Part shown: positions 5,781 through 16,045 of the stretch, one piece after another
How the letters are laid out: each line of letters opens with the position of its first letter
How positions within the stretch are numbered: the stretch's first letter is position 1
IMG/VR virus record: IMGVR_UViG_3300049988_000286
Location: 256,001 to 320,000 of that record
DNA length: 64,000 nt
From: a virus
Taxonomy: Duplodnaviria; Caudoviricetes
Strand: one strand, 5' to 3'
The notes under the pieces: generated by a model
What the model was told of the DNA's origin: nothing
What the model saw: only the letters and a program-made list of their open reading frames with translations
Database searches by the model: none
Translations under genes and position numbers: made by a program

Positions 5781-6972
5781 TTGGCATCGGCATCACATAG
5801 CCGAGCACGGTATGCTCTTGGACCTCCTCCGGGAAGAGAAAGAACACTTGGTTCGCGGGACGCCCATCGGTAGCGGGTTGCTCTCCCCGGAACATGACCG
5901 AGTACATGAAATGGATACCCGACGCGCCGGGGGTACCGCCAACATAGCATTGGTTCATCAGCATCCCGTTCCAGCCGCTGGCCCTCACACCCACGACTTC
6001 AACCTCATAGGCGCGTTCGATGAAGTCAAGCTTCTCGCGAATATCTCGCTTCGCATAGTCGGGGATGCGCCCCTGTGGCTGTCTCGTGCGTACACCTTTC
6101 AGATAGTTCTTCACGAAGACACCGCGCCAGTAGAGGAAATCACCGGTTCGGCCAAAGGAGGCTCGCAGCTTCGTCCCGATCTTCACCTTCGGGCTGGGAA
6201 GATCATAGGCGCGACCCTTCGGTCTCCGAGGATCGGGTGAGTAGGCCTTCTGTGGCGGCGATGGTGGGGGAGGCGGCGCGGGGGCGAGCATCGAGGCGAT
6301 TGCCTGACGAACTGATCCCCCACCGCTAAATGTTTGCTGGCGACTGCGCCGATAGCGAGCCTCGAACAAGGCTTCTCGCCGCCGCTTAATGTCACTGCCA
6401 GTCGATTTCCAAAGAGGCTTGTGCCAGTAGGAGCGCAGTTCATCACCACGCTCACTCTCTTTGATGGTTTCCAACCGCGTAATCAGCCGCCGCGCTGCCG
6501 CGTACTTTGGTGGTAGAAGGAGAGTGTCATTGTAGACGTGTCCCCCCTCAAGGTCGCGCGCGGCGTTTGCAATGGTGTATAGCCGCAGAGATGCCGCTGT
6601 GGTGATGTTCCCCCAAGCGTCATACCCTTCGATGAGCAACATGACTTCATCGCCGCTCGACCGGAATAGACCTTCGCGACGCGCACCCTGCGTGTTTGGC
6701 TCGGGGCCGCGATCCAGCCACCCCTTCACCTTGGCGTAGAGGCTCATCTGCTCGGCAGCGTAGTCCATCTGCTTGGTGGAGTAGTCGCTGTCCAAGTCAG
6801 GGAATGAAAATTCATCCATTGCCCGGTGCTGCATCGCGAGATGGATCATCACGCTGATCTGCTCGGTGGTAAGCCCGGCAATGCCAGAGAGATACCCCTC
6901 GACGGGATCGCCATCCTCGTCCACCTCTGCGGTATCGATCTTCATGAAGATGGGGCGCGGTTTGAATCTCAT
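5770..6972 (-). CDS. Hypothetical protein (~400 aa)
   Basis: Start revised from 7125 to ATG 6972 (MRFKPRP): a minus-strand TTGACA at 7007-7002 gives a -10 ending 6 nt before this ATG, and this removes the overlap with 7043-7450. Confidence 0.65.
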   Translation of the reverse strand: MRFKPRPIFMKIDTAEVDEDGDPVEGYLSGIAGLTTEQISVMIHLAMQHRAMDEFSFPDLDSDYSTKQMDYAAEQMSLYAKVKGWLDRGPEPNTQGARREGLFRSSGDEVMLLIEGYDAWGNITTAASLRLYTIANAARDLEGGHVYNDTLLLPPKYAAARRLITRLETIKESERGDELRSYWHKPLWKSTGSDIKRRREALFEARYRRSRQQTFSGGGSVRQAIASMLAPAPPPPPSPPQKAYSPDPRRPKGRAYDLPSPKVKIGTKLRASFGRTGDFLYWRGVFVKNYLKGVRTRQPQGRIPDYAKRDIREKLDFIERAYEVEVVGVRASGWNGMLMNQCYVGGTPGASGIHFMYSVMFRGEQPATDGRPANQVFFLFPEEVQEHTVLGYVMPMPNEN

Positions 6973-10897: not shown

Positions 10898-11611
10898 ATG
10901 CCGTGGCGATTTTCCAAACGTGTTAAGATCATGCCCGGAGTTACTCTAAACTTCGGTAAACGAGGTGTGTCGGCGTCGGTAGGTCCACGCGGCGCAAAGC
11001 TGAACTTTGGATCGAAGGGCGTGAGGGGCTCGGCTAGCATTCCCGGCACGGGCTTGAGCGCATCGACCATGCTCTACGGTCGAAAGAGGAGCCCATCGCC
11101 ACTCGGAACGCTCCTGTCTTCGCGGAAAAGTCCGTCACGCAGATTAGCTGGGTGTGGATCAGTTCTTGTTGGACTGGCGCTGCTTGGCCTTGTGTCAACC
11201 TGTATGCGCGGAGTTTCGTCATCACCAGAAGCTGCGGCGATCGTTGACATGCCAGCGCTTCTCGACGTTTCGGGCAAAGAGGCCCGAAGTGCCTTGGGTG
11301 CACCATCGGAATGCGACGTTTCAAAGAAGGGCGAGACTTGTCGCTATCGCTTCAAGGAGCGAGATGTAGAGCTTTACTTCCAACGCGGTGCGAGTGCGTC
11401 CGTTACGGTCAGCGGAGTAGATGAGCATTTCGGGTCGTCTTCGTTGCCGGTATTCGGAATCAGAGAGCGCACTCTGACCACCGCGACGCCGATCGTCATC
11501 AGAGCAGATACTACGGTGCGAGGCAAGGCCGCAGCAGTGAGCATGTTCCCACGGAAGGATAACCGTGTCGATTACGTCTATCTCAAAAAAGCGACATTGA
11601 ACAAAAAATAA
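10898..11611 (+). CDS. DUF4236-domain membrane protein
   Basis: N-terminal WRFSKRVKIMPGVTLNFGKRGVSASVGPRG...SIPGTGLS is typical of DUF4236; then a TM and a C-terminal extracytoplasmic domain. Confidence 0.75.
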   Translation: MPWRFSKRVKIMPGVTLNFGKRGVSASVGPRGAKLNFGSKGVRGSASIPGTGLSASTMLYGRKRSPSPLGTLLSSRKSPSRRLAGCGSVLVGLALLGLVSTCMRGVSSSPEAAAIVDMPALLDVSGKEARSALGAPSECDVSKKGETCRYRFKERDVELYFQRGASASVTVSGVDEHFGSSSLPVFGIRERTLTTATPIVIRADTTVRGKAAAVSMFPRKDNRVDYVYLKKATLNKK

Positions 11612-11644
11612 TTGTTGACACCCGCGACGCCCTGTGACTAAATA
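11604..11644 (+). promoter_or_regulatory. Promoter region of the tRNA cluster (TTGACA plus late TAAATA)
   Basis: TTGACA 11615-11620 with UP element; TAAATA 11639-11644. Confidence 0.65.
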
Positions 11645-11811
11645 AGTGCATGTCCACGATGACTCTCTCGACGCGAAAGCGCAAACGCCTCTAAAAGAGA
11701 GCCGCCATGCTGCGCGCTCTCGAAGCAGCCAGCGTGGGAGAGACGATCAGAGATCGTCGGTGTGACAATTCCCAGATTTTGCGCTGTGCTGCTCCCCAGA
11801 GAGGGTTGAGT

Positions 11812-11886
11812 AGGCCATTAGCTACAATTGGTCAGAGCGGCGGTCTCTTAAATCGCGGGTTGTGGGTTCGAGTCCCACATGGCCTA
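11812..11886 (+). tRNA. tRNA-Lys(CTT), no encoded CCA, acceptor stem extended to 21 bp
   Basis: Cloverleaf: acceptor AGGCCAT/ATGGCCT, anticodon arm GCGGT-ctCTTaa-ATCGC, T arm GTGGG-TTCGAGT-CCCAC. Confidence 0.8.
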
Positions 11887-11909
11887 CTCAACCCTCTCTC
11901 TACTTTGAT

Positions 11910-11986
11910 GGGTCCGTAGTTCAATAGGTTCAGAACAACCGGTTCTTACCCGGTATGTCCCCGTTCGAGTCGGGGCGGACTCACCA
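11910..11986 (+). tRNA. tRNA-Lys(CTT)
   Basis: Acceptor GGGTCCG/CGGACTC plus ACCA; anticodon arm ACCGG-ttCTTac-CCGGT; T loop TTCGAGT. Confidence 0.85.
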
Positions 11987-11998
11987 TCTCATCTTTGT

Positions 11999-12075
11999 GG
12001 GCGCATAGTTCAATAGGTCCAGAACAACCGGTTTTTACCCGGTATGTCTCCGTTCGAGTCGGAGTGCGCTTACCA
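11999..12075 (+). tRNA. tRNA-Lys(TTT)
   Basis: Acceptor GGGCGCA/TGCGCTT plus ACCA; anticodon arm ACCGG-ttTTTac-CCGGT; near-duplicate of 11910-11986. Confidence 0.85.
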
Positions 12076-12106
12076 TCACGCGCAAACGCCTATATGGACC
12101 CTTCCC

Positions 12107-12277
12107 ATGACCGACCCCACCATCCCCGACCTCTCCCTCCTCACCCTTGACCTAGAGATCGACCCGGAGGGCGACTCCGACTATCTCCGCGTCACGCTCC
12201 GCTACGATGGCGAGACCCTGACCAGCGATTCGGTGCAGTTGCCGAGACGGCGTGACTCCGCGTCGTACTACTACTAA
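12107..12277 (+). CDS. Small acidic hypothetical protein
   Basis: MTDPTIPDL... directly after the tRNA cluster. Confidence 0.55.
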   Translation: MTDPTIPDLSLLTLDLEIDPEGDSDYLRVTLRYDGETLTSDSVQLPRRRDSASYYY

Positions 12278-12282
12278 CAGTC

Positions 12283-12595
12283 ATGATCGATAGTACCACT
12301 CTGGTCGGATCGTACCGAGATTTAGCTGCCATCCTCTACTCGCTGTTTCGAACAGAATGTGAGATGATACTGCCTTCAAGACGTAGGCGGGTAAACTCTG
12401 GCATCTACGTATAAATTTGCGTGCCAAGGATATTCGATTGCAGTGTTGACTTCTATTCGGGATGGGACATGTCCTGTTCGCCGCTATTACCTTCGATTCA
12501 GCAATGCGGTTGTAGTTTGCGAGGAAACCGCTCAAAAAGGCATGATGCTGCTTCGAGGCGATGACCATACCCTCACGCTGGCATCGCTCCTCTAA
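12283..12595 (+). pseudogene. Frameshifted first member of the GDEH-LTLA array
   Basis: The frame from ATG 12283 stops at 12412-12414; the +1 frame reads ...RYYLRFSNAVVVCEE...LLRGDDHTLTLASLL* to 12595. Confidence 0.6.
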
Positions 12596-15450: not shown

Positions 15451-15734
15451 CCCGCAATCTGCACATCATCCTCCAAGGTGAGCAGACCGCGCTTGCGATG
15501 ACGATCCTCGACATGCGGGCACAAGGACTCCCGTTCCTCGTCTACTCTCGTCGCTGGACGGCCCTTTTCGGTATAGTAGGTCGAGTCATTTCATCTCGTC
15601 TGCTGGCAGCAGCAGAGTACTCGATCGCGCTGGGTAAGTATCAGGGGTTGATGATCAGGCGACACGATCTCGAACTGGTCAAGCTGCTATCGCGGGTTTC
15701 TGTCACGATCGAGGGATCGGAGCGGAGGCGGTGA
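15447..15734 (+). CDS. G(I/L)PF-family small protein
   Basis: NLHIILQG...MRAQGLPFLVY...IRRHDLELVKL, similar to 19129-19392 and 19389-19646. Confidence 0.6.
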   Translation: MTRNLHIILQGEQTALAMTILDMRAQGLPFLVYSRRWTALFGIVGRVISSRLLAAAEYSIALGKYQGLMIRRHDLELVKLLSRVSVTIEGSERRR

Positions 15735-16045
15735 CTGAAGAGGAATTCGCACTGCGGCCCGGCCGCGTTATCGAACGTGATTGGTGGCATCGGATCGGCG
15801 ATCTCATGGATCGTACCGGGATGGTGCGTGAGGTGAAGTTTTCGCAATCGCTGCGCTGCGGACTAGAGACCTACCGCAATGACGATCACATAATCTTCTG
15901 TCTAGATATTAGCAACCTCGATCGCTACAGCGTCACCTTCCCCGGCGGGCGCGTGGTGTTTGAATTCCTACACCGCTATCCCGAGATTCACGCGCGCGTT
16001 GTCGTCGGTGAGGATCAACTCACACTGCTCGCCCTGTATCTGTGA
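15731..16045 (+). CDS. GDEH-LTLA array paralog (divergent)
   Basis: RYSVTFPGGRVVFEF...VVVGEDQLTLLALYL*. Confidence 0.7.
   Translation: MTEEEFALRPGRVIERDWWHRIGDLMDRTGMVREVKFSQSLRCGLETYRNDDHIIFCLDISNLDRYSVTFPGGRVVFEFLHRYPEIHARVVVGEDQLTLLALYL

Follow-up and report, generated by a model that had tools for sequence, protein, structure and literature searches.

Why should a phage encode three tRNAs for lysine side by side, and why should two of them carry anticodon loops unlike those of cellular tRNA-Lys? Phage tRNAs are now viewed both as a supply for codons and as a counter to tRNA-targeting defences, and the locus examined here raises both possibilities. It lies in a 64-kb stretch of DNA (hereafter the window, whose numbering is used unless genome positions are given) that corresponds to bases 256001–320000 of a 499,572-bp virus record from a leaf metagenome (IMG/VR IMGVR_UViG_3300049988_000286; Duplodnaviria, Caudoviricetes), rated complete by CheckV. 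A previous interpretation, made from the letters of the window alone (the sequence-only reading), had proposed that the cluster at 11812–12075 is a redundant, nuclease-resistant lysine tRNA supply that serves counter-defence rather than codon adaptation. Our analysis makes another answer probable, namely that the cluster is the lysine operon of a near-complete phage tRNA set whose operons are fronted by leaders, and that its second and third genes belong to a recurrent phage type lacking the determinant of N6-threonylcarbamoyladenosine at position 37 (t6A37).

Three lysine tRNA genes within a genome-wide set

ARAGORN and the Rfam model RF00005 (gathering score, 29 bits) both recovered the three genes, with anticodons CTT, CTT and TTT, at the coordinates previously assigned to them:

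11812–11887, plus strand: K1, tRNA-Lys(CUU); ARAGORN; RF00005, 56.6 bits; anticodon at 11847–11849
11910–11986, plus strand: K2, tRNA-Lys(CUU); ARAGORN; RF00005, 61.4 bits; anticodon at 11945–11947
11999–12075, plus strand: K3, tRNA-Lys(UUU); ARAGORN; RF00005, 60.3 bits; anticodon at 12034–12036

The anticodon arms were fixed by Infernal alignment. K1 has the arm GCGGU-CUCUUAA-AUCGC with a canonical loop (C32, A38), K2 has ACCGG-UUCUUAC-CCGGU (U32 at 11943, C38 at 11949) and K3 has ACCGG-UUUUUAC-CCGGU (U32 at 12032, C38 at 12038). The alignment thus agrees with the sequence-only reading, which had described a common arm ACCGG-UU(C/U)UUAC-CCGGU with U32 and C38 in the last two genes, as well as G-U pairs at the top of their acceptor stems; the latter are G2-U71 in K2 and G1-U72 and G2-U71 in K3, and K1 has A1-U72 at this place. 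CCA is encoded in K2 and K3 and is absent from K1, in which the usual tertiary-pair positions, U33, A37-A38 and A73 are all present. Lysyl-tRNA synthetase (LysRS) recognizes the anticodon YUU (U35, U36) and the discriminator A73, and these identity elements are found in all three genes.

The phage host is probably an alphaproteobacterium, which fits the permuted transfer-messenger RNA (tmRNA) of the phage and the closest cultured match to K1, a Sinorhizobium phage. We therefore compared the three genes with a sample of this class; an unpublished genome (G043) was excluded from all counts. The arm GCUGA-CUCUUAA-UCAGC was found in all 30 distinct alphaproteobacterial tRNA-Lys(CUU) genes sampled, and G1-C72 with G2-C71 in 29 of these 30, and the tRNA-Lys(UUU) of one sampled alphaproteobacterial genome has UCUGA-CUUUUAA-UCAGA. 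The loops of K2 and K3 are atypical by this standard, as had been claimed, and that of K1 is typical. Of 24 comparable isoacceptors, about 13 have phage loops unlike those of the host class. The combination U32/C38 occurs in 8 of its 41 tRNAs (Met, Val, Gln-UUG, Lys twice, Leu-CAA, Thr-GGU and Glu-CUC); in tRNA-Val, the alphaproteobacterial class has it too.

Over the whole record, ARAGORN found 41 tRNAs and a tmRNA, and Rfam gave 40 hits. The 41 tRNAs cover at least 17 amino acids, and their genes lie in clusters sorted by amino acid (Glu-Glu, His-His, Gln-Gln, Cys-Cys, Arg-Arg, a Leu/Pro operon and a Ser/Thr/Ile/Trp region). According to ARAGORN and RF00005, the window holds exactly three tRNA genes, all for lysine; the description of the cluster as containing only tRNA-Lys is thus correct for the window and fails for the genome, where 38 further tRNA genes lie elsewhere. 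The sequence-only reading had itself said that it would be refuted if the genes were part of a full tRNA set of the phage, and such a set, arranged in same-amino-acid operons, is what the record contains. Codon use points in the same direction. In a crude gene call of the phage genome, about 5,100 lysine codons comprise 3883 AAG (76%) and 1209 AAA (24%), which two CUU genes and one UUU gene match, so that codon supply is a plausible function. Decoders of AAG and AAA would be supplied in about the phage's own codon ratio.

Loss of the t6A37 determinant in K2 and K3

The modification t6A37 is essential in most bacteria. Its determinant 36-UAA-38 is described in recent structural work as strict and universal, and as strictly conserved in bacterial tRNAs decoding ANN codons (PMC13276492); A37-A38 was indeed present in 41 of 41 bacterial ANN-decoding tRNAs at hand. 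K1 conforms to this rule with UAA, and K2 and K3 depart from it with UAC. With UAC instead of UAA, K2 and K3 are predicted to lack t6A37.

We scanned viral contigs (IMG/VR sample, loci L230–L341) in a way that favored neither A nor C at position 38, and counted the distinct phage genes with C38 for the following ANN decoders:

tRNA-Lys: 20/105 (~19%)
tRNA-Met(CAU): 24/70 (~34%)
tRNA-Arg(UCU): 11/29 (~38%)
tRNA-Ile(GAU): 5/39
tRNA-Thr(GGU): 2/21
tRNA-Asn: 0/43
tRNA-Ser(GCU): 0/32
tRNA-Thr(UGU): 0/34

On a tree of 112 phage tRNA-Lys genes, computed with the loop masked and including 26 genes with C38, this state required 19 changes, compared with 22–25 when the labels were shuffled. C38 is scattered over the tree, and the switch has thus been made many times.

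The type is also found in cultured phages and in detail. The tRNA-Lys(UUU) of Pseudomonas phage phiK7A1 (MT740307.1) has the arm ACCGG-CUUUUAC-CCGGU, and shares the ACCGG/CCGGU stem and C38 with K2 and K3, as do genes of uncultured phages (for example, L001–L004, L231, L249 and L259). Other large phages, at L001, L002 (with L004 and L007) and L003, have tRNA-Lys genes that share the entire 17-nt arm of the K2/K3 type, U32 and C38 included, and are otherwise unrelated to K2 and K3. In contrast to K2 and K3, the phiK7A1 and uncultured genes mostly have C32, show no relationship in the acceptor, D and T arms, and lie in mixed arrays without a lysine leader. Among cultured phages, a BLAST search with the whole operon gave generic tRNA matches to K1 only, and a 33-nt arm query matched phiK7A1 and Ep020 only; the exact 22-nt arm pattern had no match in the viral contigs. 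For tRNA-Met, the loop UUCAUAC of phage T5 is that of the phage studied here.

A scan of bacterial contigs for the arm yielded mostly chance matches; among the matches listed, 5 of 120 were in tRNA-Lys genes, all of them in dense tRNA arrays. These arrays (loci L014, L055, L065, L082 and L088) contain 5–21 tRNA genes within 8 kb, on contigs classified as Rhodoferax, Verrucomicrobiales, Roseibacillus and Chthonomonadales, and probably derive from phages or prophages.

The same data bear on a simpler account, in which short-lived, abundant phage tRNAs are under relaxed constraint and U32/C38 and the G-U pairs reflect drift or a lineage habit. The frequent departure of the phage from host-class loops, noted above, is what this account would lead one to expect, and the scatter of C38 over the tree is nearly that of shuffled labels. 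Moreover, phage loci whose tRNA-Lys has C38 were no more likely to have it in their other ANN decoders (Fisher p = 0.8), and two C>U transitions suffice to derive the G-U pairs of K3 from a host-type acceptor stem (GGGCGCA/UGCGCCC). However, constraint is not relaxed throughout: in the same phage loci A38 is kept in 43/43 tRNA-Asn, 31/32 tRNA-Ser(GCU) and 30/34 tRNA-Thr(UGU) genes (the other four having G). Nor does it readily explain a whole 17-nt arm that is identical in very different tRNA-Lys genes from several phages and from the bacterial-contig arrays.

Relatives of the operon provide a further argument of this kind. The lysine operon is also present on contigs of other leaf and phyllosphere metagenomes. 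A diverged relative contig of 461 nt spans 11754–12222; its K2 and K3 differ by one D-loop base and one T-loop base, with stems and anticodon arms unchanged, but the 46-nt spacer after K3 (12076–12121) has 12 substitutions as well as indels. Taking these observations together, we regard neutral drift as a rather unlikely explanation of the loops.

Anticodon nucleases and the counter-defence question

PrrC and AriB both act on tRNA-Lys, and the tRNA-Lys encoded by T5 resists AriB; these statements, on which the sequence-only reading relied, are confirmed in the literature (PMC10264068, PMC12409363). AriB cuts E. coli tRNA-Lys at U36AAUC\A41 (the backslash marks the cut), and UAAU is common to all AriB targets (PMC12409363). 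The resistant tRNA-Lys of T5 has U39>A and A41>C, of which U39>A alone ends AriB cleavage, and restoring the AriB site in the T5 tRNA does not regain cleavage (PMC12409363). At positions 36–41, the host-class tRNA-Lys has UAAUCA, the exact E. coli site, and the phage genes have UAAAUC (K1) and UACCCG (K2 and K3), compared with UAAACC in T5. UAAU at 36–39 is thus absent from K1, K2 and K3, which may help them to evade nucleases of the AriB type; this agrees with the sequence-only reading but is weak evidence for it. The substitution A38C, accompanied here by C32U, removes both 36-UAA-38 and the AriB-type UAAU motif; having lost both, K2 and K3 should function whatever befalls the host tRNA-Lys, be it depletion, cleavage or modification.

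These findings also bear on the possibility that the cluster is dedicated to counter-defence, replacing tRNA-Lys destroyed by nucleases of the PrrC, RloC, AriB, VapC or MazF type, with U32/C38 and the G-U pairs as resistance mutations. Besides the exact AriB site in the host class and the effect of U39>A, several features speak for it: K1 has A39 and C41 as in the resistant tRNA of T5, C38 is recurrent in phage tRNA-Lys, and the pairing of a canonical-loop with a variant-loop CUU gene resembles bet hedging. The phage also encodes RNA ligases, as T4 does against PrrC, and a leader with lysine codons (see below) would turn the operon on just when tRNA-Lys is depleted. This account is nevertheless unlikely. 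The lysine cluster is one of many in a set of 41 tRNAs, and U32/C38 is found in eight of these. The loop of the resistant T5 tRNA is canonical, and its resistance survives restoration of the site. C38 is missing from phage tRNA-Asn (0/43) and tRNA-Thr(UGU) (0/34), both AriB targets, yet is common in tRNA-Met(CAU) and tRNA-Arg(UCU), so that the pattern does not track the target set of AriB. In addition, a survey of 101 sampled alphaproteobacteria detected the AriB-type domain DUF4435 in only three, and no PrrC determinants at positions 32 or 38 were found in the literature searched. The original proposal is thus supported in part: the missing UAAU motif, the loss of the t6A determinant through C38 and the recurrence of C38 in phages speak for it, and the argument from a lysine-only cluster fails.

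Two published systems are closest in this respect. The tRNA-Lys(UUU) of T5, which neutralizes AriB (PMC11464382, PMC12409363), is likewise a phage tRNA-Lys unlike that of the host at the AriB site, and shares A39 and C41 with K1. Its loop is the canonical CUUUUAA and its resistance resides in stem positions 39 and 41 and in distal contacts, whereas here it is the loop that is changed (U32, C38); moreover, the T5 tRNAs lie in one mixed region and those of the present phage in amino-acid-sorted operons. In cluster C1 mycobacteriophages (van den Berg et al. 2023, PMC10264068), tRNA loops differ from those of the host at positions relevant to anticodon nucleases, and the idea of a nuclease-proof supply is the same. 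There, however, the host was known and the loop changes corresponded to known determinants of its VapC nucleases, whereas in our case the host is a probable alphaproteobacterium and the change falls on the t6A determinant. A link between phage loop mutations and the t6A determinant was not found in that study (PMC10264068) or in the other literature searched.

A stable-RNA promoter and a leader with lysine codons

Contigs of the relatives match from 11604/11605 onward, which places the start of the conserved cassette at about 11605. The region between this point and K1 contains the following elements:

11615–11644, plus strand: promoter of the phage stable-RNA type, with TTGACA at 11615–11620, an 18-nt spacer and TAAATA at 11639–11644, and an A-rich stretch upstream
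11650–11694, plus strand: leader open reading frame (ORF) of 14 codons, translated as MSTMTLSTRKRKRL and followed by a stop
11695–11797, plus strand: structured leader RNA, with a hairpin at 11697–11721 and a long irregular hairpin at 11724–11793 (fold z = -4.65)

The pattern TTGAC[ACG]-N15-19-TAAATA has just six copies in 500 kb, four of which precede tRNA operons (Lys, Pro/Leu, His and Glu) and one the tmRNA; the Gln operon has the motif with a 20-nt spacer. A generic sigma-70 promoter scan made no call in 11300–12500, the TTGACA/TAAATA site included. The lysine operon would thus be read from a dedicated stable-RNA promoter, like the other tRNA operons and the tmRNA. Because the leader ATG lies only 5 nt past TAAATA, the transcript is probably leaderless or nearly so.

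The ORF MSTMTLSTRKRKRL contains one AAG (11677–11679) and one AAA (11683–11685) amid arginine codons, and these two codons would be read by the tRNAs of the operon itself. This layout and the ATG offset recur in the Glu, Gln and His operons, whose leaders read ..MERERSIG, ..AQRQQR and ..SHHTYYHYHA, respectively. Lysine is found in the Lys leader alone among these four, and the cognate codons number two K, two E, three Q and four H, compared with three off-diagonal matches in 12 cells; the true assignment of leaders to operons is the best of 24 permutations. The Lys leader therefore has the mark of an attenuator, a short upstream ORF with codons matching the operon. As in the trpL, hisL and thrL attenuators, a very short ORF with cognate codons stands at the start of the transcript and is followed by structured RNA. 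The Lys leader differs in that it fronts tRNA genes, has two test codons and is apparently leaderless, and in that no clear terminator/antiterminator pair was found in it. Nevertheless, the arrangement suggests that expression of the lysine operon may be coupled to lysine decoding via the leader.

The long hairpin includes an inner hairpin, GACGAUC-AGA-GAUCGUC (11742–11758), of which the loop alone is changed in one relative (11749–11750), and a short run of four U (11777–11780). Constrained folds were consistent with the leader structure. When a ribosome was placed on the lysine codons or on the stop codon, the folds changed little, and the differences were confined to the first hairpin and to a weak leader-clamp pairing. 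The relatives are too similar to reveal covariation in the leader hairpins.

The first tRNA is enclosed in a long helix

The sequences that flank K1 pair with each other and extend its acceptor stem, and we refer to this helix as the clamp. It was found at only 2 of the 41 phage tRNAs, K1 and tRNA-Pro(GGG):

11798–11811, plus strand: 5' strand of the K1 clamp, AGAGAGGGUUGAGU, extending the acceptor stem
11886–11899, plus strand: 3' strand of the K1 clamp, ACUCAACCCUCUCU, pairing with the 5' strand; a (CU)n run follows it
350683–350696 and 350772–350785 of the genome, outside the window: strands of the tRNA-Pro(GGG) clamp

At K1, 14 additional base pairs are continuous with the 7-bp acceptor stem, giving a helix of 21 bp in which position 73 is paired. 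Pairing is kept in the relatives, and the (CU)n run (11892–11901) varies by one repeat more or less. K1 and tRNA-Pro(GGG) each open an operon that begins with a leader, neither gene encodes CCA, and in both the extension of 14 bp makes a helix of 21 bp. As the two clamps have no sequence in common, they probably act as RNA structures. A function as terminator was considered and rejected; the tRNA-Pro(GGG) clamp is followed by AAAAACAUCGU, an A run.

RNase III stems flank 16S and 23S rRNA, and phage T7 also has RNase III sites. A stem of this type is a continuous flank helix of about 20 bp or longer, as the K1 clamp is, and the simplest reading is that the clamp is a candidate processing stem cut by host RNase III. 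As in the rRNA and T7 stems, the sequences on either side of a stable RNA come together in a helix of roughly two turns (here 21 bp); in contrast to them, the K1 helix, a putative RNase III substrate, has a tRNA within it, runs on from the acceptor stem of that tRNA and leaves no discriminator base unpaired. No RNase III gene was found in the phage genome, so that cutting of the clamp would rely on the host. K1, with its canonical loop, different stem and missing CCA, would thus be made inside the 21-bp clamp and then cut off. The phage genome encodes enzymes that might complete and repair tRNAs:

98857–99225 (minus strand), 324268–324723 (minus strand) and 5859–6305 (plus strand) of the genome, outside the window: a CCA-adding/poly(A)-polymerase-family enzyme and two Rnl2-family RNA ligases

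The body of K1 is nearest to alphaproteobacterial tRNA-Trp, Trp(CCA) being the identity of 31 of the 34 best loci, with 81–86% identity over positions 8–65, and A1-U72 also resembles bacterial tRNA-Trp. K1 may therefore have begun as a Trp gene and been remoulded to read AAG. Charging with tryptophan was rejected on identity rules (CUU anticodon, A73).

A different view is that K1 is a module for processing or regulation, shaped like a tRNA and held in its clamp, which stands first in the operon and is perhaps never released or charged; its helix would mark the cut between leader and array. The restriction of the clamp to K1 and tRNA-Pro(GGG), with unrelated 14-bp sequences that amount to a compensatory second instance, agrees with this view, as do the pairing of position 73 within the helix, the Trp-like body, and the ability of the clamp 5' strand to pair with leader codons 4–7 before the 3' strand exists. 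So does the U33>C change in K1 (11846) of one relative, an odd change for a working tRNA; however, it is known from a single contig of low depth (<5). K1 also scores 56.6 bits as a tRNA, with the conserved positions listed above, and the CCA-adding-type enzyme of the phage could complete it. Cutting, moreover, would depend on the host. We consider it improbable that K1 is such a module.

A possible t6A37-independent lysine supply

Reading the locus as the lysine operon of the leader-fronted tRNA set, with K2 and K3 of a recurrent type, leaves room for a broader interpretation, which we offer only tentatively as a possibility: phages may repeatedly evolve lysine decoders that are independent of t6A37 and invisible to enzymes that recognize the UAA(U) side of the anticodon loop, such as nucleases of the AriB and VapC types and the t6A machinery, with production tied in the present case to the reading of AAG and AAA via the leader. 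The sizeable share of phage ANN-decoding tRNAs without A38 (tRNA-Lys, tRNA-Met(CAU) and tRNA-Arg(UCU), at the frequencies given above) would be part of the same tentative picture.

Several observations weigh against these interpretations. C38 may be a state that phage tRNA-Lys tolerates, with no selection in its favor. Since every phage tRNA stem is unlike the host-class stems, a missing UAAU at 36–39 is expected by default, and the comparison set is itself a sample of the class Alphaproteobacteria that stands in for the host. The odd U33>C in a relative of K1 belongs here as well. For the Lys leader alone, the chance of at least two K in 13 codons is ~0.09. A terminator scan of 11300–12500 found no intrinsic terminator, and the sole U run (11777–11780) follows an irregular hairpin and is shorter in one relative, so that gating of the lysine operon by the leader is only a possibility.

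The loss of A38 is nonetheless a concrete and checkable chemical difference between phage and host tRNA-Lys. If phage tRNAs for Lys, Met and Arg(UCU) work without t6A, a recurrent signature of phage tRNA arrays would be explained, the nucleases and toxins that are escaped could be predicted, and a natural case of ANN decoding without t6A would be at hand. A leader with lysine codons and a clamped first tRNA would fit a picture in which the phage regulates its production of tRNAs.

Other features of the genome

A class II LysRS was not found in the phage genome. Pfam gave no tRNA-related match for the ORFs neighboring the operon, among which only a DUF4236 protein, a GNAT-like protein and a ParB-like protein were recognized, and a neighboring protein of 1156 amino acids, used as query, retrieved no relatives.

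Two tRNAs with the anticodon CUA (amber suppressors) lie outside the window, at 102238–102314 (plus strand) and 106351–106425 (minus strand) of the genome. A crude ORF-coverage test gave no signal of TAG recoding, as the gain in coverage was similar whichever stop was recoded, and 81 of 496 long ORFs in the phage genome end in TAG.

The tmRNA shares the promoter type of the tRNA operons:

15527–15913 of the genome, outside the window: permuted tmRNA with the tag VNDNDIRMAIAA (ARAGORN) and a TTGACA-N-TAAATA promoter upstream

Finally, long variants of 84–95 nt with a hairpin-like extra arm occur among the phage tRNAs for Met, Arg, Asn, Cys, Gln, Ile and Glu, which normally have short variable regions; examples are found at genome positions 25686, 26983, 27717, 28227, 52274, 68172, 393055, 453376 and 453462.

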